64,000 bases of DNA from an uncultured Candidatus Saccharibacteria bacterium (GTDB lineage: Bacteria; Patescibacteriota; Minisyncoccia; Phycocordibacterales; JACOZG01). The DNA lies in assembly GCA_964448295.1 (NCBI GenBank), contig CAYUVV010000001.1, positions 144,065 through 208,064 on the forward strand, given 5' to 3'. This document shows, piece by piece, positions 17,781-56,870 of this stretch. The notes below the pieces were generated by a model that saw nothing but the letters and a program-made list of their open reading frames with translations, was not told where the DNA came from and did not search any database. Both the position numbers and the translations under genes were made by a program. Numbering within the stretch: the stretch's first letter is position 1; every line of letters begins with the position of its first letter.

Positions 17781-17865
17781 GCTCGGACGCGGCGGAATTC
17801 CTCCCACACCCCCCCCTTCCGCCGCGCCCTCGCTTGGACGGACGGAATTTTTGGCGGCGGCATTG
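17781..17865 (+). repeat. Structured ~85-bp repeat, copy 1 (20 bp after tRNA-Ala, about 80 bp upstream of the C-protein gene)
   Basis: GCTCGGACGCGGCGGAATTCC-TCCCACAC-C8-TTCCGCCGCG-CCCTCGCTTGGACGGACGGAATTTTTGGCGGCGG; 10-bp perfect inverted repeat CGCGGCGGAA/TTCCGCCGCG. Confidence 0.8.
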
Positions 17866-17946
17866 AGAAAAGAATGGAAAGTTGATATGATTGAAGTGCA
17901 AGTCATACGACCATTATATCACTTTCCATACATTATATAGTATAAT

Positions 17947-18147
17947 ATGTCCACAATAGGCAGAAACATCAAACGGCTTCGGCAAGAAAAAGGGCTTTCG
18001 CAAGATAAGCTATCTAAACTTGCCGATTTATCGCTCAATACTGTTGTTAAGATAGAATTGGACGACAGCCCTAACCCCACTATTGAGACAGTTCAAAGAA
18101 TTGCGAAAGCCCTTGAAGTGTCGGTTGATGACCTTTTGAAGAAATGA
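17947..18147 (+). CDS. XRE-family HTH protein, probable R-M controller (C) protein; likely leaderless
   Basis: 66-aa HTH_XRE; ATG directly abuts TATAAT; 4 bp upstream of the MTase. Confidence 0.8.
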   Translation: MSTIGRNIKRLRQEKGLSQDKLSKLADLSLNTVVKIELDDSPNPTIETVQRIAKALEVSVDDLLKK

Positions 18148-18150
18148 TTT

Positions 18151-18930
18151 ATGACAAAGACAGATTTTAAAAAGAAATATCTAAACAAGATCGTCTGCGG
18201 CTCTGCTGTTGATGTGATGAAAAATTTGCCGGACGGCTCGGTTGATTTGATTATCACTTCACCGCCTTACAATCTCAAAAATTCAACCGGGAACGGAATG
18301 AAAGACGGACGTGGTGGAAAATGGGCAAACGCCGCTCTACAAAAAGGCTATTCGCACCACAACGACTGTATGCCGCATGATGAGTATGTGAAGTGGCAAA
18401 GAGATTGCTTGACGGAAATGTTGCGGCTTATACCGGAAGACGGTGCGATTTTCTATAACCACAAATGGCGCGTGCAGGGCGGTTTATTGCAAGACCGCCA
18501 AGACATTGTGAGTGGTTTTCCCGTCCGGCAAATTATTATTTGGAAGCGGAAAGGCGGCCTCAATTTCAACCCCGGATATTTTTTGCCGACTTATGAAGTT
18601 ATTTACCTCATCGCCAAACCAAAATTTAGCTTGAAAACAAAGGCCAACGCTCACGGCGATGTTTGGGAATTTACGCAAGAAATGAACAACGACCATCCAG
18701 CCGCCTTTCCGGTTAATTTGATTGATAGAATTGTCGGATCAACTGACGCAAAAATTGTTTTGGACCCGTTTATGGGCTCCGGCACAACGGCGATTTCTGC
18801 GCTAAACTTTGGACGAGATTACATCGGTATTGATATTTCACCAGAGTATTGCGAAATGGCCGAAAACCGCATAAAACAACATCAATCACAATCTAAACTT
18901 TTTCAACCAGTTTATGAAAAACACGCCTAA
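18151..18930 (+). CDS. DNA methyltransferase, beta-class amino-MTase (N4-cytosine or N6-adenine)
   Basis: Motif IV DLIITSPPYN precedes motif I FMGSGTT (beta permutation); the SPPY form is common in m4C MTases. Confidence 0.85.
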   Translation: MTKTDFKKKYLNKIVCGSAVDVMKNLPDGSVDLIITSPPYNLKNSTGNGMKDGRGGKWANAALQKGYSHHNDCMPHDEYVKWQRDCLTEMLRLIPEDGAIFYNHKWRVQGGLLQDRQDIVSGFPVRQIIIWKRKGGLNFNPGYFLPTYEVIYLIAKPKFSLKTKANAHGDVWEFTQEMNNDHPAAFPVNLIDRIVGSTDAKIVLDPFMGSGTTAISALNFGRDYIGIDISPEYCEMAENRIKQHQSQSKLFQPVYEKHA

Positions 18931-19711
18931 AACCTACACAAAGCCAGAACTTATCGCCAAGCTGAAAGAAATTTCGGCAATGGGTTTTGTACCGAACGCG
19001 CGGCGAGGCAACGCTGGCGGTATCGGTAATACTCTTGAAGATTTACTCGGTATCAAAGAGAACAATTTGCCAATTCCAAACGCCGCAGAATGGGAATTGA
19101 AAGCGCAACGCCTCAATTCCACTTCACTCACAACTCTTTTCCATATTGAGCCCTCGCCGCGCGCAATTCGTTTCGTGCCGCAAGTTCTGCTCCCAAAATA
19201 CGGGTGGGCACACCAAGAGGACGGCAAGAAATATCCGAAAGGAGAGATGAGTTTCCGACAAACAATCCACGGGCAATCACGAAGCGACCGAGGTTTCAAG
19301 GTCGTTATTGACCGGAAGGAGAAAAAGATTTTGATTTCGTTTGACGCAAAAAGTGTGGACTTGCGGCACAAGACATGGGTTGAGTCAGTAAAAAAGCGTG
19401 TTGGCCTTAGCGAGCTTGACCCACAGCCATATTGGGGATTTGACGATTTGGAACACAAGGCCGGAACAAAATTACTAAACGCTTTTTATGTTCAGGCCGA
19501 AGTGAAGATCGTAAGGAAGAAGGAATATTATCACTACACGAAAGTGATGATGTTACAGAAATTCAGTTTTGAAGGATTTTTGAAAGCGTTGGATGAAGGA
19601 AAAATCCTTGTGGATTTTGATGCTCGCACCGGACACAACCACGGCACGAAATTCCGCATGAGGCAGGATGCTTTGCCGATGTTGTATGAAAAACAAACGA
19701 TAATCATTTAG
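18914..19711 (+). CDS. Type II restriction endonuclease, MvaI/BcnI (MutH-like) family candidate
   Basis: Start overlaps the MTase stop by 17 bp. MutH/BcnI-like signature NAGGIGNTLEDLLGI...EWELK...LTTLFH and C-terminal GHNHG...LY segment. Confidence 0.5.
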   Translation: MKNTPKTYTKPELIAKLKEISAMGFVPNARRGNAGGIGNTLEDLLGIKENNLPIPNAAEWELKAQRLNSTSLTTLFHIEPSPRAIRFVPQVLLPKYGWAHQEDGKKYPKGEMSFRQTIHGQSRSDRGFKVVIDRKEKKILISFDAKSVDLRHKTWVESVKKRVGLSELDPQPYWGFDDLEHKAGTKLLNAFYVQAEVKIVRKKEYYHYTKVMMLQKFSFEGFLKALDEGKILVDFDARTGHNHGTKFRMRQDALPMLYEKQTIII

Positions 19712-19715
19712 TAAT

Positions 19716-21866
19716 ATGGCAACTCGTGGAGAAATGTTTAATCGAGTAATTAAAAAGCGAAAAGACGCTGAAGATTTAATCTTGTGCATGGAAGATGCTG
19801 TCAATAAGCTTTTACAAAAAGAAACCTCGTCACAAAATCCGGGAATACTACTTGGAAAAATTCAAAGCGGAAAGACGCGGGCATTTATTGGAATAATGGC
19901 CCTTTCGTTTGATAACGGATATGACGCGGCCATTATTCTCACAAAAGGCACAAAGGCATTACTAAAACAAACTGTGCAACGCATGGAGGGAGATTTCGCA
20001 GATTTTATACAGGAAGACAAGGCAGACGTTTTTGACGTTATGGTGATGCCAGACAATCTTACTGCGTATGAAAGAAATAAAAAGCTCATTATCATCGTGA
20101 AAAAAGAGGTGAATAATATGAAAAGAATTTTAGAGAAATTAGCCAGCGTATACCCCGATCTTCGCGAGAAAAAAATTCTGATAGTTGATGATGAGGCAGA
20201 TTACGCGAGTATCAGCTTCCGCAAGCACGCAGAGGCAATAGAAGTTGGCCGCATATCATCTCAAATTGATGAGTTGAGAAGCATTGTTAAAAAAGTAGAT
20301 TATCTTCAAGTTACAGCAACTCCATATTCGCTTTATCTTCAGCCAAGCATGGTCGAGGATAGAGTTGAATTCTTGCCAAAACGGCCAGCATTCACGGTTT
20401 TACTACCAAAGCACAGTGATTATATCGGTGGCGAATTCTATTTTAATGAAAGTGAGGATGAAAACTCCATTGCGCACTTTATTTTCGAGGAAGTTCCCGC
20501 TGATGAAAGAGATGTGCTGAAAGAACCTGATGCACGCCGATTAAAATTGGATGATGTTGTTTCGTCTAGTAAAATAAATGTTTTGAGAAAAGCGGTCGTA
20601 AATTTTTTGGTCGGCGCGATCATTAGACGCAAACAACAAATAGATAGCGGAGAACCCCAGCAGAAATATGCCTTTATTGCACATAGCGAAATTCACCGGA
20701 ATTCGCATGGATGGCAACTTGAAATAATCCGTGCCTTAATAGCCGAGCTAGCGAAAATAGCAAAGGATAGTCCACAGTCCTTAGATTCTCTCATTGAAGA
20801 ATCATATGAGGATATGAAAAAGTCCGTAGGTAAAATTGATTCCCTAAAAATGCCGGCAAAAGAAGAAGTGAGGGGTGGAGTAATAAAATCTCTACTGGAA
20901 GAGCACATAATGATAACAACGGTAAATTCTGATAAAGAAGTGGAGGAATTGTTGGATGATAAAGGACAGCTAAAATTGCGTAACCCAATGAATATTTTTA
21001 TTGGCGGACAGATTTTAGATCGCGGTGTTACAGTAAATAACTTAATTGGATTTTATTATGGTAGAAAACCAAAAAGATTTCAGCAGGACACAGTTTTACA
21101 ACACGCAAGGATGTATGGCGCGCGGCCACGTACCGATTTGGCCGTAACTCGTTTCTATACAACGAGGGACATTTATGAGGTTATGAGACGTATTCATGAG
21201 TTCGATTCCGCACTAAGGGAAGCGTTTGAAAAGGGAGACCATTCCAACGGAGTGTATTTCATACGAAAAGACGTTACTGGACGACTCGTCCCTTGTTCTC
21301 CAAACAAGCTTTTGCTTTCCTCTCTCGCAACATTACGACCGCATAAAAGATTGCTCCCAATTGGCTTTCAAACAGGATACAAAACAAATATCGGAGATGT
21401 TGTTGGACAAGTTGATTCAATTATTGACGAGTGGTTTTCCGGAAAAGATGAAAATGAGCCGGTACTTGTTGAGCTTAGTGATTGCATGAAAGTCGTTGAT
21501 TTAATTTCCAAGACACTTGAGCTCGACGAGTCCTATTCGTTCAACTGGAAAACTTTCAAAGCAAGTTTAGAACACCTATCTTTGCACTCTCGAAATAATT
21601 CAGAAACCGGGAAAGTATGGATTTTGATAAGGAAATCAAGAAATACAAAAAGGATTAGAGAGGGTGGGCGTATTGAAAATGCTCCGGATACTCCACAACG
21701 TGAAGGTGTTATTGCTAAGAGAGTTTCGATTGATACCCCTGTGCTTATGTTACTCCGCCAAAATGGCACAAAAGATGATGGGTGGAGAGATGCAGAGTTT
21801 TGGTGGCCTGTGCTGATGACACCACAAAATACAGAGGTTACTGTTTTTGCCGAGGAAACAGTATAA
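19716..21866 (+). CDS. SF2-like P-loop ATPase, Z1-domain-like protein (fourth gene of R-M operon)
   Basis: Walker A GKIQSGKT, Walker B ILIVDDEAD, 716 aa; starts 4 bp after the REase stop. Confidence 0.45.
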   Translation: MATRGEMFNRVIKKRKDAEDLILCMEDAVNKLLQKETSSQNPGILLGKIQSGKTRAFIGIMALSFDNGYDAAIILTKGTKALLKQTVQRMEGDFADFIQEDKADVFDVMVMPDNLTAYERNKKLIIIVKKEVNNMKRILEKLASVYPDLREKKILIVDDEADYASISFRKHAEAIEVGRISSQIDELRSIVKKVDYLQVTATPYSLYLQPSMVEDRVEFLPKRPAFTVLLPKHSDYIGGEFYFNESEDENSIAHFIFEEVPADERDVLKEPDARRLKLDDVVSSSKINVLRKAVVNFLVGAIIRRKQQIDSGEPQQKYAFIAHSEIHRNSHGWQLEIIRALIAELAKIAKDSPQSLDSLIEESYEDMKKSVGKIDSLKMPAKEEVRGGVIKSLLEEHIMITTVNSDKEVEELLDDKGQLKLRNPMNIFIGGQILDRGVTVNNLIGFYYGRKPKRFQQDTVLQHARMYGARPRTDLAVTRFYTTRDIYEVMRRIHEFDSALREAFEKGDHSNGVYFIRKDVTGRLVPCSPNKLLLSSLATLRPHKRLLPIGFQTGYKTNIGDVVGQVDSIIDEWFSGKDENEPVLVELSDCMKVVDLISKTLELDESYSFNWKTFKASLEHLSLHSRNNSETGKVWILIRKSRNTKRIREGGRIENAPDTPQREGVIAKRVSIDTPVLMLLRQNGTKDDGWRDAEFWWPVLMTPQNTEVTVFAEETV

Positions 21867-21871
21867 TATAG

Positions 21872-21958
21872 CAATGCCGCCGCCAAAAATTCCGTCCGTC
21901 CAAGCGAGGGCGTGGCGGAAGGAGGGGGTTGGGGGGAGGAATTCCGCGCCGTCCGAGC
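21872..21958 (-). repeat. Structured ~85-bp repeat, copy 2 (inverted relative to copy 1; 6 bp after the stop of the Z1-like gene)
   Basis: Reverse complement aligns with copy 1 over its whole length, with poly-C tract variation. Confidence 0.8.
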
Positions 21959-22186
21959 ACCGCATTGAACCCGCCACATTGCCTGAATACTTGGAGGGCA
22001 GAACCCCGAAAGAAAACACCCTTTCCCTTTTCAGAAAAAATTTCATCCCAGCCAAATCAGAAAAGCAAGGAGTGTTTTTTTCGGGGTTGCCGCCGAGTCC
22101 GCGAGGCGGTGTCAGCGGGTTAGTCAGTATTTTGTTGGAAGTAAGTCCGAACTTTTTGGTATAATGACCATAATCACGATAATTAA

Positions 22187-22747
22187 ATGAAGCCGCAGAA
22201 GCGTTGCGCTTGGGTAACGACTGATCCGCTCTATATTAAATATCACGACGAGGAGTGGGGTGTGCCAACGCGGGATGATCGAAAAATGTTTGAATTTTTA
22301 GTGCTGGAGAGCGCGCAGGCTGGCCTCTCCTGGCTGACGGTTTTACGCAAGCGGGAGAATTATCGTCGGGCTTTTGCTGATTTTGACCCGCGGGCGGTGG
22401 CCCAGTTTGGCGCGCGCGATGTCGCGCGTTTGCTTAAAAATCCCGGCCTGATTCGTAATCGGCAAAAAATTACGGCCGCGATTAACAACGCTCGCCATTT
22501 TTTAGAAGTGCAAAAAGAGTTTGGCTCGTTTTCTGAATATCTCTGGAATTTTGTGGGCAATCGGATTGAACGACATACTGTTCGCCATCTGCAGGATTAT
22601 CCGAAATTTACACCCGCAGCCGAAATGTTGGCCAAAGATTTAAAAAAACGCAGTTTTCGATTTCTTGGTCCCACCATCATTTACGCCCATATGCAGGCCG
22701 TGGGGATGGTCAATGATCATATGATTGGTTGCTTTCGTCGGCTATAA
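22187..22747 (+). CDS. tag: DNA-3-methyladenine glycosylase I
   Basis: Near-colinear with E. coli Tag: YHDEEWGVP...LSWLTVLRKRENYR...VNDHMIGC. Confidence 0.9.
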   Translation: MKPQKRCAWVTTDPLYIKYHDEEWGVPTRDDRKMFEFLVLESAQAGLSWLTVLRKRENYRRAFADFDPRAVAQFGARDVARLLKNPGLIRNRQKITAAINNARHFLEVQKEFGSFSEYLWNFVGNRIERHTVRHLQDYPKFTPAAEMLAKDLKKRSFRFLGPTIIYAHMQAVGMVNDHMIGCFRRL

Positions 22748-24563
22748 TTGTCTTGTGGAAGGTCCAAAATGGCACCGTCTGAGCGTGGCGGAAACGGCGC
22801 GACGCTTGCAAACTGATGTCTTGCGCGGGCTCGACGACCAAGCGGTTCTGGAGCGTAGACGTCTGACGTCGGGCATTCACGCGGCAAATTTTTTCTCGAC
22901 GACTGTTCAGATTTTGCGGGCAGAACTTGTTCGACCACCACTAATTTCTCTTGGTCTGGGTGTTTTGTTTGCCGCTTTTCTCCGCCATTGGCCGGCGTTT
23001 TTTGTTGGTTTGGTTCTGTTTGGCGCGGTTTTCGGCCTCGGTTGGTGGGGGAGAGTGGTTTGGTCGAAGATTCGGCAAATATCGAAGCGCGAACGGCAGG
23101 CTTCAGTCACCGTTATTCGTGGAGGCGAACGGCGGCAAATTCCTCCGGGCGAGTTGGTTGCGGGCGATCTTTTATTGCTTTCAGCTGGAGAAGTGGCGCC
23201 CGGTGAGGCACGAATTGTCTCGGCTCATTCTTTGAAGATATTTTTTGATGGTCGAACGGAACAAGCGCTTGTTTCGGCTGTGTCGACGTCGTCAGAGCCG
23301 CCGCGGAATATGTTGATGACGGGGGCGGCTGTGATTTCTGGCTCTGGTCAAGCGTTGATGGTGGCAGAAGCGGTGCGTGTTTGCCCGCCTGGTGTTGGTA
23401 ACGAGGGTTTGATTACTCCTCGAGGGCGACGTTACGCCGAACTGGCGATTTTGGCAAACGGCCTCTCTGTCTTGCTCTTGATTATTCTTTTTTTAGTTGG
23501 TTGGGGGACGGTTTGGTTGGTCCCGTTGGTGTTGGTTTTTCCGGCGGCGCTAGTACCCGCCTGGACGGCGATTCTCGTCTATTTGGCTAAGGTCATTACC
23601 CGGGAGGGCGGTTTGATAAACCAGTTGGCTGTGATTGAAAATTTAAGCCGCGTCCAAACATTAATTTTGGGGCGTGGTGGTTTGCAGGCCAATGAAGAAT
23701 TGTCGGTTGATTTGATTGTTCCGCGGAGCGATGCGGTGGGTGATCGAGAAGATGTGCTCTGGATGGGAATTATGACCGCAGAAGCTTGGTCGGACTCGCC
23801 CTTTACGACGTGGAGCAGGGTGGCTACGGTCCACGGCCGGCCAGTGGAGCGCGCCCTTATTCGTGCTGGTCTCGTAATCAAAATGTCGCCGGAGCGAATT
23901 TTTCCTCAAACTCCGCGTGTAGATTTTTTACCGTTTGATTCCGAACGTGGTTTTGCCGCCTCTCTCCACTGGGACCGCGCGGCCGAACGCCACTTTGTTT
24001 ATTTTGCCGGTACCCCAGAATTGCTTTTGGCGCGGGCTAAGTTTTTTTATCGGTCCGGTGCGCTAAGCCCGATGACGGTTGCAGATCAGGATTTTTTCTT
24101 GGCCGCAATCAAGCAGGGAACCGAGCGCGGGGTGAACTTTCTGGCCACGGGATTCGCGGTCGGCCGCGGCCCACGTTTATCAGCCGCTGAACCAATTAGT
24201 GACGAGTTGGTGTTTGGGGGCTTGATTGGCTTAACCGGAACGATGGTCGGAGAGAAAACTACGGTATCGGCTCCGGTTGCCGGAACAAACGAATTAAAAA
24301 TGATTGTAGTTAGCTCCCGTCTAGCCGACAAACTTTCAGCTCTAGTGGATTGTCGTCAGAAAAAAGAATCAGCGGCGATCATCGGCGCTCTTCCTCCCGA
24401 CTTATTATTGTTTAATCAAGCGGATTTGAGTTTGGCACCCGCCGATGCGCCCCCCGCCCTGCGGCAGGCGGCGCATCTTGTTTTACCCGGCCGCCTAAAC
24501 GCGTCTGATGTTTTGAACCGGTGGCACCTGTTAACGGCGCGATACCTACAAAAATTTCTCTAA
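22725..24563 (+). CDS. P-type ATPase-like protein, degenerate (lacks DKTGT and TGES)
   Basis: Cation_ATPase_N-like start, 2 TM, actuator-like VIRGGERRQIPPGELVAGDLLLL, 2 TM. Where ICSDKTGTLT is expected it reads LILGRGGLQ. No C-terminal TM bundle. Confidence 0.5.
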   Translation: MVAFVGYNCLVEGPKWHRLSVAETARRLQTDVLRGLDDQAVLERRRLTSGIHAANFFSTTVQILRAELVRPPLISLGLGVLFAAFLRHWPAFFVGLVLFGAVFGLGWWGRVVWSKIRQISKRERQASVTVIRGGERRQIPPGELVAGDLLLLSAGEVAPGEARIVSAHSLKIFFDGRTEQALVSAVSTSSEPPRNMLMTGAAVISGSGQALMVAEAVRVCPPGVGNEGLITPRGRRYAELAILANGLSVLLLIILFLVGWGTVWLVPLVLVFPAALVPAWTAILVYLAKVITREGGLINQLAVIENLSRVQTLILGRGGLQANEELSVDLIVPRSDAVGDREDVLWMGIMTAEAWSDSPFTTWSRVATVHGRPVERALIRAGLVIKMSPERIFPQTPRVDFLPFDSERGFAASLHWDRAAERHFVYFAGTPELLLARAKFFYRSGALSPMTVADQDFFLAAIKQGTERGVNFLATGFAVGRGPRLSAAEPISDELVFGGLIGLTGTMVGEKTTVSAPVAGTNELKMIVVSSRLADKLSALVDCRQKKESAAIIGALPPDLLLFNQADLSLAPADAPPALRQAAHLVLPGRLNASDVLNRWHLLTARYLQKFL

Positions 24564-24570
24564 ACTTGCT

Positions 24571-25635
24571 ATGCTCAACCCGATGCCTGAAGGCGTTTGG
24601 ATTTTAGCGGGGATTTTAGCCGGCGCCGCCGTCGCTTGGTTTATTCGACGCCACCAAACCCCCAACACCAACCCCAATTCTGATAGCTTGTTGTTGCTAC
24701 AGAATCAATTGCAGGAACTTATCAAGACTGTGGATGACAAACTGGGTCATTCCGGCAGAGAGATGATGCAGGCCATTCGGCACCAGTTTGGCGAGTCTCA
24801 AAAATTGATTCGCGATATTACGCAGGAAGTGACGAAGGTCGAACAATCAAGTCGCCAATTTCTTACCGTTGCGGACTCTCTGCAAAATTTGGAAAAAGTT
24901 TTGAAGCACCAAAAACAACGAGGCAATTTGGGCGAAGCCGGTCTGGAACTGATTTTGGGGAACATTTTGTCGCCCGCCCAGTTTAAAATGCAGTATCGTT
25001 TTCAAAACGGCGAGACGGTTGATGCGGTAATTTCAACCAAGGACGGCCTGATTCCGGTTGACGCCAAATTTTCTCTCGATAATTATAATCGGTTGGTTAG
25101 CGAGTCCGATGAGACTCGACGCCTGGTGTTAGAAAAAGAGTTTAAAAATGATTTGAAAAAAAGAATTGACGAGACTGCAAAATACATTCGGCCGGAAGAG
25201 GGGACTCTGCCCTTCGCTTTTATGTTTATTCCCGCGGAGGGGATTTATTATGATTTGCTGGTCAGCGAAACCGGCTCGGTGAAGGTTAATACACGCAATT
25301 TAATTGATTATGCCTATCGCGATAAAAATGTGATTATTGTGTCGCCAACCACCTTCTCAGCCTACCTGCAATCAGTGCTTTACGGTTTTCGGGCCTTTAA
25401 AATTGAAGAACGAGCCAAAGAGATTAGGCAAAGGGTCGGGGAATTGGGTAAACACCTCGCCGCCTACGATCACTTTATGCAAAAATTGGGCAATACTTTG
25501 GGCACCTCTGTTTCGCATTATAATGCCGCCTATAAAGAATTAAAGAAAATTGATCGTGACGTCGTGCGAATTGCCGATGCGCCAGCGAGCATCGAACCGC
25601 TCCAGTTAGAAAAACCGGTAGTGGACAAGGACTAG
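24571..25635 (+). CDS. rmuC: DNA recombination protein RmuC family
   Basis: N-terminal TM, coiled coil, conserved RGNLGEAGLELIL and C-terminal nuclease-like region. Confidence 0.6.
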   Translation: MLNPMPEGVWILAGILAGAAVAWFIRRHQTPNTNPNSDSLLLLQNQLQELIKTVDDKLGHSGREMMQAIRHQFGESQKLIRDITQEVTKVEQSSRQFLTVADSLQNLEKVLKHQKQRGNLGEAGLELILGNILSPAQFKMQYRFQNGETVDAVISTKDGLIPVDAKFSLDNYNRLVSESDETRRLVLEKEFKNDLKKRIDETAKYIRPEEGTLPFAFMFIPAEGIYYDLLVSETGSVKVNTRNLIDYAYRDKNVIIVSPTTFSAYLQSVLYGFRAFKIEERAKEIRQRVGELGKHLAAYDHFMQKLGNTLGTSVSHYNAAYKELKKIDRDVVRIADAPASIEPLQLEKPVVDKD

Positions 25636-26103: not shown

Positions 26104-26116
26104 AATTCCGGTTCCA

Positions 26117-43842: not shown

Positions 43843-45066
43843 CTAAGTCGTCGCTGGTTGACCGAGAAGAATATTGTAAATCGCGCGGCACTTCTGAGCA
43901 GTTGCGCGCCAAGTAATGCTTTTTGTCTCGGCGTGGCCGTTGTGGCTCAAGGTTTGTCGCAGTGGGCGATAACGCAAAACCGAGATGATTTGATTGGCCA
44001 TTTCTTCAATATCCCAAAAATCAACTTTCAAGGCGTGGCGAAGTACTTCCGCCACGCCCGATTGTTTGGAAATTATAACGGGTGTACCGTAGGTTAGCGA
44101 TTCGAGCGGCGTCAAACCAAAGGGTTCTGAAATGGAGGGCAAAACGTAGACATCGGCGGCGCGGTAGAGTGCGGCCAGTTCGCGTCCGCGGACGAAGCCG
44201 GCAAACATCATTTTGTCGGCAATGCCGAGCGCGGCGGCTTGGCGGATAGTCTGGGCTTCCATGTCGCCCGAGCCAGCGACGACGAAATAAACCTTGGGAT
44301 TTAATTCCAGCACACGTTTCGCGGCGGCAACAAAATAATCCGGGCCTTTTTGTAAAGTAATTCGTCCCACAAACAAGACAACACCGTACCCGCGTTCGCG
44401 CCATCGGCAAAGCGCCGGCAAAGCCGGCGCGTCATCTTGGGGCCAATCAATGCCATTGTGGACCACCACGACCTTGCTTGAATCAATACCGTAGTGACGC
44501 ACCACTTGGTTGCGAGTGAGACGACTAATCGCCACGACTCGATCAGCTCGTTGCATCCCCTCTTTTTCGATTTCGTAGACCCGTTGATTGACGTTTGCGC
44601 CGCCGGTGCGGTCGAACTCGGTGGCGTGAACATGGACGACCAGAGGTTTACCCGAACGTTCTTTGGCTTTCCAGCCAGCCGGATATGCTAACCAGTCGTG
44701 GGCGTGGATTACATCAAAATCTGTTTCGTCGGCAATTATCGATGCTCGTTCGCCATATGAGAGAACTTCTCCCACTAAATCATCGCCGTAGAACGACGAA
44801 CCAGTTTGACGCCGCACTTGGGTATAAGCTTCACTCGTCACATAAGGATAGAGCAAACTGTTTACCGCTCGGGCTTTCAGATTAGGAATGTCGGCAAAAA
44901 AAATTGGAAACGGCGCGTTAACCACGCCCAAACGCTTAGGAAGAACAAAAGTTAATGCGAGCCCTTCTTCAACCATTGCCCGAGCCAATCCGAGGCAAGC
45001 GGTACCGAGCCCGCCGCTGTTATGGGGCGGGAATTCCCAACCGAACATTAGGACTCTCGGTAGCAT
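43843..45066 (-). CDS. Glycosyltransferase family 4 (GT-B)
   Basis: FGWEFPP...GGLG N-terminus, C-terminal E...FG..LE motif. Confidence 0.75.
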   Translation of the reverse strand: MLPRVLMFGWEFPPHNSGGLGTACLGLARAMVEEGLALTFVLPKRLGVVNAPFPIFFADIPNLKARAVNSLLYPYVTSEAYTQVRRQTGSSFYGDDLVGEVLSYGERASIIADETDFDVIHAHDWLAYPAGWKAKERSGKPLVVHVHATEFDRTGGANVNQRVYEIEKEGMQRADRVVAISRLTRNQVVRHYGIDSSKVVVVHNGIDWPQDDAPALPALCRWRERGYGVVLFVGRITLQKGPDYFVAAAKRVLELNPKVYFVVAGSGDMEAQTIRQAAALGIADKMMFAGFVRGRELAALYRAADVYVLPSISEPFGLTPLESLTYGTPVIISKQSGVAEVLRHALKVDFWDIEEMANQIISVLRYRPLRQTLSHNGHAETKSITWRATAQKCRAIYNILLGQPATT

Positions 45067-49056: not shown

Positions 49057-49356
49057 TTGGTTAAAAAACCAGGGCTCTCGGCCCCAGATTTTTAAGATGA
49101 TACGGTAAAATAAAGACGGGGTCAAACGGGCCGACGCCAGATTGTTTCGATTGAGCGCTGACTGTCGAAAGTCCAATCGTGTTCGGCCGGTGCCAGCCAA
49201 ATATCGGGAAAATTTTGAGCGCGCGCTTAGAAATTGGGGGATGATTGCGTAAGAGAATGAATGATGTCTACCTCGAGGCCGAAGAATGAATCAAAAATTT
49301 TATTTATTGGTAACTTAGTTTCGCTGATTAAATTTGTATAATTGGGTTATCCATCA

Positions 49357-50055: not shown

Positions 50056-50065
50056 GGTGATTAAA

Positions 50066-50764
50066 TTATAACACTTTAAGCTTGCTCCTGATAATCCGAT
50101 ACATTCTCCACTTGTAACCAATATCTTCAATTTCTATGTGCCTTTCTGGAACGTACCCATATTCTCCCAGCATTTCTTCGAACTCTGAAAAATCACTTTC
50201 TCCCTTAAAATTAACGTGGGTCATTATTATAATCCCCCCATCATTTAAATACTTACCAACCTCTTCGAAAAAAGTGTGATGAATTTTATATTCAGGATCA
50301 TAAAGAGCGGACTCCACTATTCCTTTAATCGGAAAATCTGTGATAGGAAGATTTGCAATAACGACATCAAACTTTTCTTCCCCTTTAAGACTGCTAAACA
50401 GGTCACTTTCAAAAACTGAGACCACGGCCTCTACACCATTGAGATGAATATTTTCTTTTGCACACAATACCGCTACGGGATTTATATCTAAAGCAATAAC
50501 ATTTTGAGCACCATCTTTTGCCGCCTGAATAGCTTGCACGCCCGTACCTGTCCCTATATCAAGAATCCGCTTCCCCTTAAGATTACCGAAAATCGTATGC
50601 AATTTCTCGGAAGTTCGTGAGAAATTACTTCGTGGAGGAAAGACATCCTTGCAAGTCTTTATTTTTAAACCCTCAATATCAATAATTTCGGATGCCTGGT
50701 TTTTAATTTCTTGTAGAAATTTTTTGGTTATATCGGGATTTACTTTAGCCATATAGATATTCAT
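50066..50764 (-). CDS. Class I SAM-dependent methyltransferase (small MTS domain, RsmC/PrmC-like) with degenerate motif IV
   Basis: ILDIGTGTGV motif I; motif IV reads ANLPI rather than NPPY/F. Confidence 0.65.
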   Translation of the reverse strand: MNIYMAKVNPDITKKFLQEIKNQASEIIDIEGLKIKTCKDVFPPRSNFSRTSEKLHTIFGNLKGKRILDIGTGTGVQAIQAAKDGAQNVIALDINPVAVLCAKENIHLNGVEAVVSVFESDLFSSLKGEEKFDVVIANLPITDFPIKGIVESALYDPEYKIHHTFFEEVGKYLNDGGIIIMTHVNFKGESDFSEFEEMLGEYGYVPERHIEIEDIGYKWRMYRIIRSKLKVL

Positions 50765-50909
50765 ATTTTACAATCTTTTCAACCTTTTTGATAGACTTTT
50801 GCAGTTTAGCTTCCTTCACCGAATTTGTGTAGTTGACTTCCCTCCGCTTCTGCTCTGTGTTGCGGTTGGGATCTGGACTTCGTAAGCGTTCGCGGTATGT
50901 TCGTGTCGT

Positions 50910-52208
50910 ATGGAAACAATGGCAATACCCCGCCGAAATACGGCGACTCCCGGCCTTCAAGAACAGGAGCCTATCCGCTATTGCCTCTACGCCCGCAAAT
51001 CGAGCGAAGCCGAAGAGAAACAAGCCTTGTCCATCGATTCTCAAATTAAGGAAATGCTGACCATTGCCCAGCGCGACGGTTTAAACATCATCGAGATGTA
51101 TCGTGAGTCGCACTCAGCCAAAGACTGCGGCCAACGGCCAGTTTTCAACAAATTGCTCATTGATATCCGCGAGGGCAAGTTTAACGGTATTCTCGTCTGG
51201 CATCCCGATCGGCTGAGCCGGAACGCCGGCGACCTTGGTACGGTTGTGGATCTGCTTGACCAGAAGAAATTAATCGAGATTCGCACTTACAGCCAGCGTT
51301 TTACCAACAACCCGAATGAGAAATTCCTGCTCATGATTCTCGGCTCTCAAGCCAAGTTGGAAAATGATAACAAGAGCGTCAATGTAAAGCGCGGCCTCAA
51401 GACCAAGTGCGAACTCGGGCTTTGGCCCTCGGTGGCGCCAACCGGATACCTGAACTCCAAGAACAAAGATCAGAAAGGCGTGGTGTTCGTGGATCCGGAT
51501 CGAGCGCCAATTATCAAAGAACTTTTCCGCAAAGTGGCTAATGAAGGCTGGAGCGGCCGAAAGATTTACCGATGGCTCAAGGAGATTAAATTTGTCACCC
51601 GCACCGGCAAGCCGCTCACCTTGAGCAATGTTTATGTGATTCTCAACAATCACTTCTACCACGGCTCGTTTGAGTATCCCAAACAGAGCGGTCGCTGGTT
51701 CCAAGGCAGGCATATGCCGCTAATCTCCAAAGACTTGTTCGATGAGGTCCAGAAACAGCTCCACCTGCAAATTAAGGCCCACAATCGTAACAAAGAATTC
51801 GCCTTCACTCGATTGCTTTTCTGCGGCGTCTGTGGCTCAGGCGTGACGGCGCAGGAAAAATTCAAGAGTTTGAAGGATGGCTCGATCGCCAAGTATATTT
51901 ACTACGGCTGTACCCGGGCCAAAAATATCAACTGCGAGAAAATTCTCATTGATCAGTTAACCAAAATCATTGACCAAATCGATCTCGATCGCTCGGGCAT
52001 CAAGAAAAAACTTGGAGCCGAGATCGAGCGGCATAAAAAATTTCACTCAGGGATTATGGGAAAAAGCGAAGAAGCCTATCGCGCGAAAGATGCCGATATC
52101 AGAAATTACGCGAAGTATCTGCTAATCGAAGGATCGATATTTGAGAAGCGGGATTTGCTGGGGTGTTTGAAGAGTAAGCTCTCTCTTAAGAATAAGATAA
52201 TCTACTAA
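50910..52208 (+). CDS. Large serine recombinase (resolvase N-domain + recombinase domain + Zn ribbon)
   Basis: YARKSS catalytic region, DRLSRN, C-terminal Cys cluster CGVCGSG...YYGC. Confidence 0.85.
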   Translation: METMAIPRRNTATPGLQEQEPIRYCLYARKSSEAEEKQALSIDSQIKEMLTIAQRDGLNIIEMYRESHSAKDCGQRPVFNKLLIDIREGKFNGILVWHPDRLSRNAGDLGTVVDLLDQKKLIEIRTYSQRFTNNPNEKFLLMILGSQAKLENDNKSVNVKRGLKTKCELGLWPSVAPTGYLNSKNKDQKGVVFVDPDRAPIIKELFRKVANEGWSGRKIYRWLKEIKFVTRTGKPLTLSNVYVILNNHFYHGSFEYPKQSGRWFQGRHMPLISKDLFDEVQKQLHLQIKAHNRNKEFAFTRLLFCGVCGSGVTAQEKFKSLKDGSIAKYIYYGCTRAKNINCEKILIDQLTKIIDQIDLDRSGIKKKLGAEIERHKKFHSGIMGKSEEAYRAKDADIRNYAKYLLIEGSIFEKRDLLGCLKSKLSLKNKIIY

Positions 52209-52963
52209 GATAGTAGCCCGGCCTGCTCTCGTGACATACCTTTTGCACCCTCATTTCTTATTTTCTTCCAGATTCTTTCAACTCCATCAATGTGCCCTTT
52301 TTCTCTTTCGCGATTGCGTTGTGCTTCTTCGATAACTTTTGACCATCTCAACATCATAAGGACTGCCCCTTCCCTAACTAAGTCAAAGAAGTCCTTAGGC
52401 CTAAGCATAATTGTTTTGTGTTCCCTTATGGCGAACTCAGCTTCCATCTTTTCCTTATTTTCGTCCGATAAGTCATTGGCTGCTAGCGCAATAAAAATAT
52501 CTTCCGTCGGCTCACCAAATCCAAAGAAGTGGACTAGGGCATTTCTAAATTTATATAGACGCTCACTACTAACTGCAGTAAAGAGACCTTTATAATATTG
52601 ATTCTCGGTATTTATACAGAATTCCTCATACCAAACCCTTGGTCTTTTATTGGTGGTACCCGTCTGATTTAAATAGCTAAACCAATAACTGGCTAATACA
52701 TCGATTAAACTGAAGGTCACGATCATTTGTATACGCTGGGGAATCGGAGTAATCTCTTTGTCATTTTTAAAGAAAACGGTGTTACATTCTTCAATTACAC
52801 TCATTAAGAAATCTACGACCTCCTTTTCTCTAGCTGTGTGCTGAGATATATATTGCTTCCTGTTATCATACATATAGAGGCTACAGTTAGGATCACCCGT
52901 CCCATAACAACGCTTATATTTCTTTCCGCTTCCACACGGGCATTTATCATTTCTTCCCGTCAT
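52205..52963 (-). CDS. SEC-C-motif protein with uncharacterised C-terminal domain
   Basis: N-terminal KCPCGSGKKYKRCYG; remaining 220 aa unknown. Confidence 0.5.
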   Translation of the reverse strand: MTGRNDKCPCGSGKKYKRCYGTGDPNCSLYMYDNRKQYISQHTAREKEVVDFLMSVIEECNTVFFKNDKEITPIPQRIQMIVTFSLIDVLASYWFSYLNQTGTTNKRPRVWYEEFCINTENQYYKGLFTAVSSERLYKFRNALVHFFGFGEPTEDIFIALAANDLSDENKEKMEAEFAIREHKTIMLRPKDFFDLVREGAVLMMLRWSKVIEEAQRNREREKGHIDGVERIWKKIRNEGAKGMSREQAGLLS

Positions 52964-53233
52964 AAAATTTCTCAGATAATTTTGACCCCTCTTGGTCCTT
53001 CGATACTTTTCTAGACTGCTGTCCCTCCTGAATGAAATCCGAACTTTTTACCAAACGAACCCTGACGAATGAAGCCGCCCCGCCGCCGCTCGCTGACGCT
53101 CGCCACCGAGCAAAACACTCTTTACATTTTCTGATTTGCGCGCGCCCCCGAAAAATTTTTCCAATTAAGGAAAAGAGTATTTTGCTCGGCTCTGCTCTGA
53201 ACGAGCAGGCGGCGGGGCTGGCCTCTATTTTTT

Positions 53234-53316
53234 GCTCGGGCGCGGCGGAATTCCCCCCACACCCTCCTTCCGCCGTGTTCTTGCGGGAACGGACGGAATT
53301 TTTGGCGGCGGTTATT
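53234..53316 (+). repeat. Structured ~85-bp repeat, copy 3 (overlaps stop of helicase gene)
   Basis: GCTCGGGCGCGGCGGAATTCCCCCCACACCCTCCTTCCGCCGTG...GGACGGAATTTTTGGCGGCGG. Confidence 0.8.
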
Positions 53317-56300
53317 TTGATTTTAGCATCTCCTTTATCTCCTGAACACACTGCTCCAAATCATTTTGGAGTTGATACACCCAAAATCGTTTGACTTGCC
53401 ATCCATGCATGATGAGATGCTGATCTCGTTTCAAATCCGAGAGCAAGCGACCTCCGTCAATGTCGCGATGCCACATCTCGCCGTCAATCTCAATATCAAT
53501 CGGGATTTCAGAATCAAGAACGGCAAGGTCAAGACGATATTGGTACAACGGATATTGCGAGATGGTTCTGATACCTTCCCGCGCGAGGGCGTCATACAAA
53601 ACTTCCTCCCACGGCGACTCAAATTTTCCTCCGCTTTTATTTTTATTTTCCGGTTCCAACTCCTCGACATACTTCACGAAATCCGAAAGATGCGAGATGC
53701 CGGATTGAGCGCAAGCAACCCTGTCGCCGACAATATGCAATTCCGCCCTCGCACGGGTAATCGCGACATTGAATAGATTTACCGTATTTCCCAAAAATCC
53801 TAACGAGCGTTGCTGGATTTTACGCGATACAACCGGAGAGAAAATCATAATGTCGCGTTGGTCGCCTTGATATTTATGCGCGGTATCAACTGTAAAATCC
53901 AGTTTTCGCAACTGCGCCGCGTCTATCTTTTGCTCTACCAAATCTCTGATTTTGTTCGCTTGCTCTCGGAAGGGCGTAACAACGCCGAGCGATACGGAGT
54001 AGTCGTCGCCGTGGGCGAAAATTCTTTTGATAATTTCTTCAATCAACGCAACAATCGCTTTCGCCTCGTCCAAATTGTATGCGCTTCCAGCAGATGGCCG
54101 AATAACCTCGCCGACGACATCGTGCCAAATGAGCGCGTCTGGATGTCCGGCGCCGCGCAACCTACGATAATCCGTCCAAACGCTCAATTTCCCGCCATAA
54201 AACTTTTTGTTGGAGAAACCGATAATTTCCGCGCGGCTCCTGTAGTGTTCGAGTAAGTGAACGAATTTTGCACCCGTTCCTACAACGCTTCGCGCAAGCT
54301 CAAAAAGAGAGTTTATGCTGTAAAGAAAGCGTTGGTCGTCGGTCGAGGTTAGGCCAATCTGCCGTTGCAACTGTTGATCGTCCGCGCGATGCAAAAGAGA
54401 GATGTGCGTGAGCTGATTTGGGTCGCCCACAATCACGGCTCGCTTCGCGCGATAAAGTAGCGGAATTGCGGACGCGATGTCGCATTGAGACGCTTCGTCA
54501 ATAATCACGACATCAACGGCTCCTGCGCTCAACGGGAGTGCGTGACGGACGGATAGATTTGTAACGGCCATCGCCGGAAACGCCCTTACTACGCTTTTGA
54601 ACATTCGCTTGCGCTCATTTCTCAACTCCTCCGCAAGTTCGCCTCCTGTTACATCACCCTCTAATCGGCGCACGATACTCACATAGTCCGCAATATCGCG
54701 CCGTTCCTTAGGGCCAAGCGACTTGAGACGACGCTTCATCAACGCATCAACATATATGACGCTAATATCTATCGCGCGTTCTTTGCTTTTTGTGATTCGC
54801 TCCCGCAAAACTTCTACGCGCGCTTCGTTCTCATTCTCTCGCACAATTCCTAGAAGTTCAGATTGATTATCAATCCACTTTTTCAAGGCGCGGCAAATTG
54901 TCAAAAGCTCTCGGCAGTTATGAACGGAATTGAGCGAGATATTGATGCCTTCGACTGGCGCAAGCAGAAGTAATGATTTTGCTGTTTCCAAAACTCGTTT
55001 TTCCAGCGTAGAACCGAAAAGCGCAAGAACGCGCGAAATAAAACCGGGTCCCTCGTCAATTTCCTTTACTAAGCGACCCAACGAAACAAGAGTGTTATAA
55101 AATTCCTGTTTCCCTTCGATTTTTTGATACGAGTTGAGGTTGCGAGAAATTGACGAAGGCAATTCCGCTCTGACAGATTCAAGCGCGGCATCAAGGCGAC
55201 TTATGCGATTCCTGCGATCAAGAATGCGGAATAGTGATTGTTGCGCCTCTTTTTCTTCCGAACGCACTACCTCAAGCTCTTTTTTGTATTCGCCAATTTC
55301 TCGCTCTAGCGATTGGCTGTTGTAGCTTGAGGCGCGTTCAATCGCGGACAAAAGTGCTTCCGCAAATTCAATCTCGCGTTCCTTCTGCCCATATTTGAGA
55401 ATGACCGGCTCGGATTGAAGTCGCAATAATCTTTCAATGACGACATCAACCGCTTTGTGGTTTTTACTTCCGAATAAAACGCTTTCGTTATGAAGTAGCG
55501 CGTTGGCAATAATATTAAGAACGATTTGCGACTTTCCGGTTCCGGGCGGTCCGGTAATGACACTAACCGTATTGTTGAATGCACTTTTGACCGCGCCTCT
55601 TTGTTCATCGTTCAGTCCGGTTATTTCCAGCAATCCATCGCCGTTGTCCTCTTTGACTTCTGCGTTTCTATCAAGAATTACGCGCCATACATCATTCGGA
55701 GCGGTGGTATCTCGTAATTCGCTCAATTCTTGCTCTAGCCCACCAGTGTATTTTGAATCCGCGCTCCGAAAAATAACGCCAAGAGGCAAAACACCGCCCT
55801 CCGCTTTTAATTCTGTTGTTTTGCCGCCTAGAATATCTTTTGAGAAAGGAACCTCTTGCGGCAAAAGCTCGGCGAACGCACCCAAAATAGTTTTGAGATT
55901 TTGCCCTCTGCTTTTCTCATCGTCCCATGATTCCAAAACCGCTTCGGCGATTTGCTTTCTTTCCTCAACGCTCGTCAGTAAACTTTTATCTGTGAGAAAA
56001 GCAGAGTTGATTCTCGGTCTATCAGATTGCAAAACGAAAGCGTGTCCGGTTTCTGTTTGAACGAGGTCTATACCGAAAATCAGGATGGGCTGGATTATTT
56101 GACCCGACCATCCTCGTCGCGATTGTTCAATATGTTTAATGTGGCAAGGAAAGCCATAGAAATACGAAAGTGGACTGCGGCTCCATCGGGGACCGCTGAT
56201 GAACGCTTGGATTTTTTCATTTTGACCCTCAAATTCCAGTTTTTCCTTGCCGGACGCAATCCACTCTTTTTCCATTGCAGGCACCTGCAAAAACTCCACT

Positions 56301-56500
56301 CCATCTTTTGACGAGTAGAGTGTGATTTCTCCGGAGTTCTCAACGGAAATGCATGAGCCGTAATATTTGAGGAGTTTTTGCCAGCGTGAGGATGTAGGGT
56401 CGGTGTGAACCACCGGAGTCTTGTTTTCTGTTTTTCGGGCGGTTGCCGTTCGCCTATATCCGCCTCGACCTCTGTATTTGTTGCGATAGTAGGTTGCCAT
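53312..56500 (-). CDS. SF1 (Upf1/DNA2-like) helicase fused to C-terminal DUF559/Vsr-like endonuclease domain; N-terminal about 300-aa DUF4011-like region
   Basis: Walker A ITGPPGTGKSQ, Walker B VVIIDEASQ, motif VI region TAHKYQGDQRD, C-terminal YRLDLAV...IEIDGEMWH...D...K nuclease-like core. Confidence 0.8.
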   Translation of the reverse strand: MATYYRNKYRGRGGYRRTATARKTENKTPVVHTDPTSSRWQKLLKYYGSCISVENSGEITLYSSKDGVEFLQVPAMEKEWIASGKEKLEFEGQNEKIQAFISGPRWSRSPLSYFYGFPCHIKHIEQSRRGWSGQIIQPILIFGIDLVQTETGHAFVLQSDRPRINSAFLTDKSLLTSVEERKQIAEAVLESWDDEKSRGQNLKTILGAFAELLPQEVPFSKDILGGKTTELKAEGGVLPLGVIFRSADSKYTGGLEQELSELRDTTAPNDVWRVILDRNAEVKEDNGDGLLEITGLNDEQRGAVKSAFNNTVSVITGPPGTGKSQIVLNIIANALLHNESVLFGSKNHKAVDVVIERLLRLQSEPVILKYGQKEREIEFAEALLSAIERASSYNSQSLEREIGEYKKELEVVRSEEKEAQQSLFRILDRRNRISRLDAALESVRAELPSSISRNLNSYQKIEGKQEFYNTLVSLGRLVKEIDEGPGFISRVLALFGSTLEKRVLETAKSLLLLAPVEGINISLNSVHNCRELLTICRALKKWIDNQSELLGIVRENENEARVEVLRERITKSKERAIDISVIYVDALMKRRLKSLGPKERRDIADYVSIVRRLEGDVTGGELAEELRNERKRMFKSVVRAFPAMAVTNLSVRHALPLSAGAVDVVIIDEASQCDIASAIPLLYRAKRAVIVGDPNQLTHISLLHRADDQQLQRQIGLTSTDDQRFLYSINSLFELARSVVGTGAKFVHLLEHYRSRAEIIGFSNKKFYGGKLSVWTDYRRLRGAGHPDALIWHDVVGEVIRPSAGSAYNLDEAKAIVALIEEIIKRIFAHGDDYSVSLGVVTPFREQANKIRDLVEQKIDAAQLRKLDFTVDTAHKYQGDQRDIMIFSPVVSRKIQQRSLGFLGNTVNLFNVAITRARAELHIVGDRVACAQSGISHLSDFVKYVEELEPENKNKSGGKFESPWEEVLYDALAREGIRTISQYPLYQYRLDLAVLDSEIPIDIEIDGEMWHRDIDGGRLLSDLKRDQHLIMHGWQVKRFWVYQLQNDLEQCVQEIKEMLKSK

Positions 56501-56502
56501 AA

Positions 56503-56709
56503 TTATGAAAGAAGATTGCGCGGATCAACGCCGAGGGCATCAGCCAATCTTTCGAGATTTTTAACTGTAGGATTTCTAATTCCGCGCTCTATTCCGCTAA
56601 TGTAGCTCCGGTGAACGGCAAGTTTCTTGGCGATGTCCCCTTGGGACATACCTTTTTGCAAGCGGATTTTTCGTAGTTGCTCTCCAAGTTTTTTAGTAAG
56701 TGGCTTCAT
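56503..56709 (-). CDS. XRE-family HTH regulator (immediately upstream of, and co-directional with, the helicase)
   Basis: HTH_XRE; start set to the internal ATG (MKPLTKKLGEQL). The longer track ORF uses a non-ATG start that runs into the repeat. Confidence 0.7.
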   Translation of the reverse strand: MKPLTKKLGEQLRKIRLQKGMSQGDIAKKLAVHRSYISGIERGIRNPTVKNLERLADALGVDPRNLLS

Positions 56710-56797
56710 AGTGTCTTGTTGATATGTTAGCACTTGTTGCACTATTGGTCTATAGAGTATTATAATACTCGTATGGTAATCGCCGCTCCCGCAAGAA

Positions 56798-56870
56798 CAC
56801 GGCGGAATTCCCCCCACACCCCCCCCCCTTCCGCCGCGCCCTCGCTTGGGCTGGCGAATTTTTTGGCGGT
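56798..56870 (+). repeat. Structured ~85-bp repeat, copy 4 (about 85 bp upstream of the HTH gene start)
   Basis: CACGGCGGAATTCCCCCCACAC-C10-TTCCGCCGCGCCCTCGCTTGGGCTGGCGAATTTTTTGGCGG; 5' end diverged. Confidence 0.75.

Follow-up and report, generated by a model that had tools for sequence, protein, structure and literature searches.

Repeated or structured sequences that border exchangeable DNA are known from several systems. The attC sites of integrons are imperfect hairpins at cassette boundaries whose structure is conserved over their stem sequence, and in cassette arrays one hairpin is common to adjacent cassettes. The attP, attB, attL and attR sites of large serine recombinases (LSRs) measure about 50 bp and possess dyad symmetry, with half-sites at a fixed spacing about a central dinucleotide, and reciprocal hybrids of them surround the inserted DNA. 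Repetitive extragenic palindromes (REPs) and the related BIME and REPIN-RAYT repeats are GC-rich, palindromic and hairpin-forming, and they are known insertion targets or hotspots; REPs are 20-40 nt long, number hundreds per genome between core genes and are associated with a Y1 HUH transposase. In Neisseria, minimal mobile elements place alternative, often restriction-modification (R-M), cassettes between conserved flanks, where they are swapped by transformation and recombination, and the inverted repeats of Correia elements and of DNA uptake sequences (DUS) act as terminators. HUH Rep origins and the stem-loops of CRESS viruses and geminiviruses combine an invariant loop with a co-varying stem, and recombination breakpoints accumulate at this loop. 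Here we compare with these systems a family of hairpin repeats that is represented by four copies in a 64-kb stretch of DNA (the window) from an uncultured Candidatus Saccharibacteria bacterium (GCA_964448295.1, contig CAYUVV010000001.1, positions 144,065 to 208,064). Coordinates refer to the window; L-numbers denote loci fetched from other genomes.

In its layout the repeat works most like an attC site, yet it lacks what defines that family. As in integrons, imperfect hairpins stand at cassette boundaries, their structure is conserved over the stem sequence, one hairpin (copy 4) is common to two adjacent cassettes, and for one cassette, which encodes a helicase, a circular form with one complete hairpin is implied. 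However, there are no R''/R' cores (RYYYAAC/GTTRRRY): the stem base reads GCTCGG ... CCTCGC in all copies, with no GTTRRRY. No IntI tyrosine recombinase, attI or Pc is present here, and the only nearby recombinase is of the serine type. Furthermore, it is the loop that is conserved and serves as the exchange point, not the stem base; the cassettes are multigenic with their own XRE gene and promoter, the repeats are convergent instead of direct, and the hosts belong to the Candidate Phyla Radiation (CPR). The suggestion of attC-like sites, raised when the repeats were first noticed (the original prediction), therefore fails for want of cores and of IntI, and because the repeats are convergent and the cassettes self-promoted. 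We propose instead that the repeats are cassette-junction modules of the accessory DNA of CPR/Patescibacteria, which would act when folded and within whose loop DNA would be exchanged, either by an enzyme or by the processing of extruded hairpins. We assign this reading a probability of roughly 0.45.

The pattern GCGGAATTCCNCCCN{5,20}TTCCGCC has exactly four matches in the window, at 17792-17823 (+), 21914-21947 (-), 53245-53274 (+) and 56802-56835 (+), and none in 100 shuffles. A covariance model based on 40 homologues from other genomes, used to scan the window with filters off, assigns the four copies 62-81 bits (E 3e-24 to 5e-18) over the spans 17776-17870, 21867-21963 (-), 53229-53321 and 56786-56882, and nothing comparable in the rest of the 64 kb; a repeat finder recovers the same four. 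Together with a degenerate fifth hairpin, the copies are as follows.

17776..17870, + strand: copy 1, a short module S with a 13+2 bp stem, a C-rich loop and a tail ending in GGCGGCGGCATTG; 81.3 bits; nhmmer model positions 213-291
21867..22171, - strand: copy 2, a full-length element E of ~295 nt; nhmmer 22169-21878, E 1.8e-57; covariance model 62.3 bits
53018..53321, + strand: copy 3, a full-length element E; nhmmer 53025-53310, E 6.9e-66; covariance model 80.9 bits
56786..56882, + strand: copy 4, a short module; 66.5 bits on the + strand and 24.4 bits, fully paired, on the - strand
61234..61312, - strand: a fifth, degenerate S-like hairpin of the form GCTCG-stem-ATTG-stem-CTCGCTTTGGCGG-T run; covariance model 21.1 bits, E 1.4e-4

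According to both the pattern and the covariance model, the four copies exist far beyond chance at the places and in the orientations first claimed for them, and their placement relative to the window genes is as originally described. All lie in accessory DNA and none in the housekeeping intergenic regions of the window, which again agrees with the original prediction; the repeats themselves are GC-rich, and all four to five copies are found in low-GC accessory DNA. Two points of the first description need correction. A unit size of ~85 bp suits the short modules, but copies 2 and 3 each form the 3' end of an element of ~295 nt (21876-22171 (-) and 53018-53312 (+)); copy 2, for instance, is made up of a 5' extension with three co-varying helices, the hairpin and the tail. 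A perfect 10-bp inverted repeat, supposed to occur in every copy, is present in copy 1 only: copy 3 has one G.T pair, copy 4 one A.C mismatch, and copy 2 two disrupted positions. In the fifth hairpin, directly downstream of tRNA-Gln, a 4-nt loop takes the place of the C-rich loop.

Two further observations concern short sequences. The motif CTTGCC(ATTG)CCCCACC / TTCTTTTCCTTGCCCCACCCTCC follows right after the tail at 61235-61260 (-) in the window and in L032, L056, L102 and L116. At 44030-44060, a perfect 11-bp hairpin with arms like those of the repeat and a 4-nt loop, GGCGTGGCGAA-GTAC-TTCCGCCACGCC (covariance model 18 bits, E ~1e-3), falls within an open reading frame (ORF) of 407 aa at 43843-45066 (-).

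Module S comprises about 90 nt: a GC-rich hairpin, an asymmetric, near-invariant C-rich loop that opens with GGAATTCC, and a tail of ~35 nt with an A/T run. A core of ~30 nt, GGCGGAATTCC-C(n)ACAC(n)-TTCCGCC, is near-invariant across the family, and the stem varies in paired fashion (GGGCGCG/CGCGCCC, GGGCGAG/CTCGCCC, GGGCATG/CATGCCC, AAGAACACG/CGTGTTCTT and others), giving arm types that include CGCG, CGAG, CATG, CGTG and AAGAACACG. Stems of exactly 13 bp are found in 68 of 128 hairpins and stems of at least 11 bp in ~85%; ~12% are interrupted. The loop measures 13 to 22 nt across the family. Often S forms the 3' end of the ~295-nt element E, which contains three further conserved helices. The alignment of 29 full-length elements from ~25 genomes supports four helices in all, i.e. 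a long-range helix CCC.GCCGC/GCGGC.GGG, an AT-rich hairpin of ~22 bp with TTTGCGCGCGCC in its loop, a short hairpin CUGCUC/GAGCAG, and the terminal hairpin. RNAalifold returns 45 pairs, 25 of them with compensatory double changes. In an independent count over the same elements and pairs, 96.1% of the cells pair, compared with 48-57% when the partners are slid, and 25 pairs change on both sides, compared with 3-7; none of 500 shuffles reaches the observed values.

Some peculiarities of single parts of the structure were also noticed. In about 10% of family members (L005, L008, L037, L050, L055 and L117 among the loci) the asymmetric loop is inverted relative to its flanks. Inversion of a loop between stem arms is a common mutational event, and the idea of a telomere-like flip/flop hairpin was abandoned, since such a proportion of inverted loops is not diagnostic. 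The 5' tip of the element, TGGYGG...TTCGAA, is similar to a tRNA 3' end read in reverse complement; a derivation from tRNA was rejected because the spacing misfits a real T-arm and acceptor stem. The tip is a possible recombinase half-site.

The arms of copies 3 and 4 carry the first evidence that DNA has been joined within the loop. The left arm of copy 3 belongs to type A (resident), its right arm and tail to type B (from the helicase cassette); in copy 4 the left arm is of type B, and the right arm and tail are of type A. The two type B arms are located at the ends of the cassette:

53268..53292, + strand: terminal repeat on the helicase side (type B right arm), the reverse complement of 56783-56807 (25 nt, 96% complementary)
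56783..56807, + strand: terminal repeat on the XRE side (type B left arm), which aligns with the cassette end of L222

Together, the left arm of copy 3 and the right arm of copy 4 make the family's canonical 13+2 bp stem. The arms are thus reciprocally swapped, and exchanging them restores two proper hairpins, a resident full-length one of type A and a type B hairpin with a 24/25-bp stem that is part of the 3.5-kb helicase cassette. Arms swapped in this way are what a reciprocal exchange inside the common core leaves behind. The original prediction of an excisable helicase cassette is in keeping with this, as the geometry is that of an excisable insertion. Inversion of the R-M cassette between copies 1 and 2, likewise predicted, is possible and would have no obvious effect on expression.

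The closest homologues of the helicase (84-97% identity) sit on contigs of 3.4-5.5 kb, and cassettes homologous to that of the helicase on contigs of 3.4-4 kb. In L222, whose helicase is 94% identical, the order is S(+), XRE, helicase and an inverted copy; the distal repeat equals the proximal one from CCCTCC-TTCCGCC, i.e. from the last six loop bases, inward and is unrelated outward. This is a second, independent junction inside the loop, from another metagenome. Furthermore, copies 1 and 2 share 98% identity in right arm and tail and diverge in loop and left arm, and chimeric arms occur in L080, L096-L098, L103 and L116. The view that the repeats are places of DNA exchange is therefore supported: the swapped arms, the loop junction in L222 and the chimeric arms all speak for it. 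On the opposite strand, copy 4 is perfectly paired and points a vestigial tail toward the helicase cassette; thus one hairpin is common to two adjacent cassettes, as in an array.

The position of the repeats around accessory cargo is equally consistent. Among 27 pairs of neighbouring hairpins from the window and other genomes, 24 are convergent (+-), two are divergent (-+) and one is direct (++), namely copies 3 and 4. In the convergent pairs the tails point inward, 1.3-6.8 kb apart. The enclosed genes are accessory and vary by locus, and R-M systems make up more than half of them (L010, L013, L022, L026, L052, L108 and L127 as well as two cassettes of the window); they include CfrBI-, TaqI-, TdeIII- and HinP1I-type systems, C5 methyltransferases and one type I system. 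Other cargo consists of an aminotransferase with a SIS protein, a metal ATPase, an MFS transporter and a radical-SAM protein. In 23-25 of 31 cases an XRE gene in the same orientation starts 88-232 nt past a tail; together with the convergent bracketing, this defines a recurring unit of S, XRE, payload and inverted S. Cassette boundaries, one of the functions originally considered, accordingly describe the repeats well, with 24 of 27 neighbouring pairs enclosing accessory, mostly R-M, cargo. A role as DNA uptake signal was ruled out on the ground that copies are rare and confined to islands. In a subfamily with GGGCGG arms (L010, L026, L036, L120 and others), the two members of a pair continue differently after the shared part, GACGATTTCAAGTTTTT versus AAACTGCCAAAGAACCTGAAAAAATATCGG, and the pairs are therefore polar.

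In the window, the relevant genes are arranged in three regions. The first reads ddl, tRNA-Ala, copy 1, XRE, N4/N6 methyltransferase, MvaI/BcnI endonuclease, Z1 protein, inverted copy 2 and tag; the second reads serine recombinase, SEC-C protein, copy 3, a minus-strand Mokosh-like SF1 helicase-nuclease with its XRE gene, and copy 4. The third, on the minus strand, comprises proteins of 239, 163 and 175 aa, a type II endonuclease, an EcoRI-family methyltransferase and an XRE gene, and reaches to tRNA-Gln.

17686..17762, + strand: tRNA-Ala, immediately upstream of copy 1
17947..21866, + strand: cassette 1, with XRE/C protein, N4/N6 methyltransferase, MvaI/BcnI endonuclease and Z1/ResIII helicase-like protein
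50910..52208, + strand: large serine recombinase, ~0.8 kb upstream of the 5' end of copy 3; candidate enzyme
53312..56709, - strand: cassette 2, with XRE and a 1062-aa SF1 helicase bearing a DUF559/MTES_1575 nuclease domain (Mokosh MkoC/MkoA-like)
56870..61109, - strand: cassette 3, with XRE, EcoRI-family methyltransferase, type II endonuclease (GmrSD_N+HNH) and the 175-, 163- and 239-aa proteins
61352..61423, - strand: tRNA-Gln, immediately upstream of the degenerate hairpin; island boundary

Copy 1 begins 18 nt past tRNA-Ala, and the XRE gene starts 82 nt past its tail. The tail of copy 2 ends 5-6 nt after the Z1 stop codon, and the 5' end of this element borders on the tag promoter. Copy 3 adjoins the stop codon of the helicase gene, and copy 4, which separates the XRE promoter from the stop codon of the following gene, is the double-faced hairpin of two cassettes, that of the helicase on the left (vestigial tail GGTAATCG) and, to the right, the EcoRI-like R-M cassette; the degenerate hairpin closes cassette 3 at its XRE side.

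Several observations on these neighbours stand apart from the question of exchange. The conserved pair of 163-aa and 239-aa proteins lies directly against a hairpin tail both in the window (56870-58067 (-)) and in L127 (3082-4279 (+)); the proteins are 60% and 76% identical between the two and match neither Pfam nor PADLOC. The cassette beside copy 4 encodes the EcoRI-family methyltransferase and the type II endonuclease (59833-60906 (-)), and every invariant core holds GAATTC within GGAATTCC, which may be a coincidence. At the outer 5' tip of copy 2 (22150-22186 (+)), the opposite strand reads an extended -10 promoter, TGGTATAAT, ~25 nt before the tag start codon, and outward TGnTAnAAT boxes are also present at element tips in L053, L056, L002 and L006.

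A scan of one genome per species lists at least 120 matches. C-rich-loop hairpins are carried by 101 fetched loci, and the family occurs in at least 100 loci of metagenome-assembled genomes (MAGs) of Patescibacteria. Among the matches listed, nearly all hosts are Patescibacteria MAGs, from more than 20 named candidate lineages (Falkow-, Vogel-, Harrison-, Giovannoni-, Kaiser-, Taylor-, Doudna-, Peregrini-, Davies-, Levyi- and Saccharibacteria, among many others); a few bins are labelled otherwise and may be mis-binned. Near-identical long elements are found in different candidate classes, which indicates horizontal spread. The repeat reaches the gathering threshold of no Rfam family: with Rfam 15 only two tRNAs pass in the window, and the best sub-threshold matches over copy 3 are unrelated. 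The literature searched offers no relevant match to the core sequence or to the subject of CPR recombinases, R-M systems and cassettes, and phage and plasmid collections hold no match to the repeat; the claim that the family was previously undescribed fits these results. In IMG/VR there are only four true matches, one of them a 4.4-kb R-M contig with a repeat at both ends.

A module directly follows a tRNA gene in ~10-15% of the loci examined. Many contigs terminate in a module, where assemblies often break, and such islands are systematically fragmented in MAGs. The short-read assemblies L121-L124, L211, L216 and L217, from the same or an 80%-related strain, all break at repeats or beside adjacent tRNA genes.

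Based on these results, we propose that one module stands at each end of an accessory operon with its tail toward the cargo, usually in the order S, XRE, payload, inverted S, and that breakage and joining within the loop of the hairpin would insert or exchange cassettes. The Mokosh-like helicase cassette, with its own 25-bp-stem hairpin, would have entered the loop of a resident full-length element; events in this direction would have left two hybrid hairpins, copies 3 and 4. The module would be active in folded form, its loop being recognised or cut by a putative enzyme, and the loop length of 13-22 nt supports the proposal because a folded hairpin tolerates a variable loop. An invariant loop on a co-varying stem, with breakpoints at the loop, is what the repeats have in common with HUH Rep origins and the viral stem-loops; in contrast to these, neither the cassettes nor their surroundings hold a Rep or HUH gene (no search was made for enzymes that act in trans), and the hairpin lies on opposite strands at the two ends.

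Several results weigh against junction modules that act by their loop. The convergent layout is a mismatch to simple insertion of a circle at one site, which predicts direct repeats; only copies 3 and 4 are direct. Our analysis, which assessed proximity only, ties no recombinase to the loop. Single-sequence folding energies of the window copies are no better than those of shuffled sequences (z -0.5 to +1.0). The evidence for a structure is hence evolutionary and carried by covariation, and the folded molecule could be RNA as well as single-stranded or extruded DNA; of the folding first predicted, the thermodynamic side is unremarkable and the structure is supported by covariation across homologues. 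Nor do 38 G.U versus 21 A.C cells decide the functional strand. Mosaic joints occur between extension and hairpin in L032 and L048 and between hairpin and tail in L003, L004, L029 and L065; exchange is therefore not confined to the loop, and homologous recombination could yield much of the pattern. Finally, neither an empty site nor an excised circle was recovered among contigs with identical proteins from the same strain and 80% relatives, all of which stop at or beside repeats and hence hold no information on presence or absence.

The explanation that survives best beside ours dispenses with a dedicated reaction, and we regard it as a rival to be taken seriously, if on balance doubtful. According to this model, E is a small structured transcript or a terminator-like insulator of XRE-led cassettes that shields both sides, and its spread is due to ordinary homologous exchange, i.e. 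RecA-dependent double crossovers in conserved modules between naturally transformable CPR cells, comparable to the spread of the Neisseria minimal mobile elements, with the chimeras as by-products. Insulation predicts just the convergent layout that is observed, since both modules face inward and each would stop incoming transcripts. The XRE gene lies at a fixed distance past the tail, a -35-like TTGAGA box is found at the tail end, and the helices co-vary over all 295 nt, as those of a structured RNA do. However, the T run lies 18-25 nt past the stem, and with its 17-nt loop the module is not called an intrinsic terminator by the consensus scan; the strand is left undecided by the G.U/A.C counts; and the invariance of a 30-nt loop core across phylum-level lineages demands a specific partner, beyond a hairpin alone. 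As regards the exchange itself, the mosaic joints at several module boundaries are in favour of homologous recombination, and so are the near-identical elements in different CPR classes. The invariant core is the longest identity among divergent copies, where crossovers would concentrate. Against this stands L222, in which the loop is joined to unrelated DNA, an event impossible by homologous recombination. Compared with the minimal mobile elements of Neisseria, whose flanks are housekeeping genes, the flanks here are portable structured repeats that move between phylum-level lineages.

Unlikely, in our view, is a gene-capture system of CPR that would be integron-like with a different chemistry. 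Circular, XRE-led cassettes with one hairpin each would insert or swap at the invariant loop of resident platforms, which are often beside a large serine recombinase and a tRNA gene, and arrays of defence cassettes with shared hairpins would accumulate there.

A separate question is the role of the serine recombinase itself, which the original prediction had regarded as a possible actor on the repeats. If the modules were double-stranded att sites of the associated LSRs, a dimer would bind the two arms and exchange strands at a central dinucleotide in the loop, with copies 3 and 4 as attL and attR; we consider this decidedly unlikely. It is true that arms and loop together, at ~51 bp with dyad symmetry, have the size of an LSR att site, and that reciprocal hybrid sites surround the helicase cassette in direct orientation. 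One family of large serine recombinases is also often close: it is found in 17 of ~105 blocks of 8 kb, where it mostly lies in divergent orientation 130-250 bp from the module's 5' side, and of 80 loci retrieved with the recombinase as query, 9-12 have an element directly upstream. The half-site spacing, however, is fixed in att sites and varies here (13-22 nt), the stems co-vary, and most pairs are convergent, an arrangement in which such an enzyme could bring about inversion only. The arms, moreover, differ among members of one close recombinase clade (CATG in L022, CGCG in L013, CGAG in L108). In five loci the recombinase gene is bracketed by inverted repeats of its own, 85-148 bp long and 100% identical:

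L022: 4994-5117 and 6597-6720
L205: 5693-5805 and 7381-7493
L200: 5704-5850 and 7344-7490
L189: 5683-5830 and 7343-7490
L142: 5531-5615 and 7100-7184

The start of the left arm of these repeats coincides exactly with the long element's 5' end; the right arm corresponds to the 3' coding end of the recombinase gene and adjoins the CCA end of a tRNA gene (Ala, Glu or Asn) in convergent orientation. The bracketed recombinase thus looks like an insertion-sequence-like or invertible unit that targets tRNA 3' ends, a target other than the loop. The closest relatives of the window enzyme (56-83% identity) have no hairpin repeat; close relatives are situated at 1.6-1.9 kb from tRNA-Gln and are accompanied by other cargo. 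Because of its own repeats, the repeat-less relatives, the variable loop and the differing arms, we treat the recombinase as a co-resident that targets tRNA ends, and its action on the repeats is not supported, a loop of 13-22 nt being incompatible with a site of fixed spacing; for the loop reaction it is a candidate only. In L132 (3258-4845) and L134, a DUF262/GmrSD-like protein and a 156-aa protein are located between the recombinase and tRNA-Gln, without hairpin repeats.

Very improbable is a non-autonomous transposon, MITE-like (miniature inverted-repeat transposable element) or composite, with the modules as terminal inverted repeats and a transposase encoded elsewhere. Such an element would account for the strong +- bias and for the private sequence variants common to both members of a pair, as well as for the 299-bp arms of L022, which are 100% identical, the recurring motif TGGYGGTGTG...TTCGAA at the outer ends, and contigs bounded by both repeats (L102, L127). 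But the outer boundary varies (model positions 2, 20, 30, 47, 76, 176 and 213) and the constant part is the internal hairpin; 18 pairs show no target-site duplications at their outer boundaries, no transposase was found in the cargo, and the co-varying stems suggest a folded form and not a protein-bound duplex end. The MITE-like spacer named in the original prediction is disfavoured for the same variable ends and missing duplications. A generic REP-like intergenic repeat unlinked to gene mobility, finally, has a negligible chance: the repeats are GC-rich, palindromic, multicopy and sometimes directly after tRNA genes, but only four to five copies occur in 64 kb, all in accessory low-GC DNA and none in housekeeping intergenic regions, those in other genomes are convergent, cargo-enclosing and XRE-linked, and neither the REP size nor, among the annotated ORFs of window and cargo, an HUH domain was seen.

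CPR/Patescibacteria account for a large share of bacterial diversity and, to our knowledge, their mobile DNA is almost uncharted. The repeats are a large, uncatalogued family of structured sequences bounding mobile, mostly anti-phage cassettes in the ultra-small bacteria of this little-explored superphylum. It is unexpected that a 30-nt sequence in accessory DNA is invariant across phylum-level lineages, and that an element of ~295 nt with strong covariation is absent from Rfam. If the integron-like reading were true, this would be the first integron-analogous cassette platform without IntI and attC, and a main route of defence-gene exchange across Patescibacteria. If the modules are joints for swapping R-M and other defence operons, they would account for many contig breaks and provide a sequence tag for variable islands in fragmented MAGs; they would also be a concrete substrate for finding the enzyme, possibly a new tool for hairpin-directed recombination, and would explain how such tiny genomes refresh their immunity.

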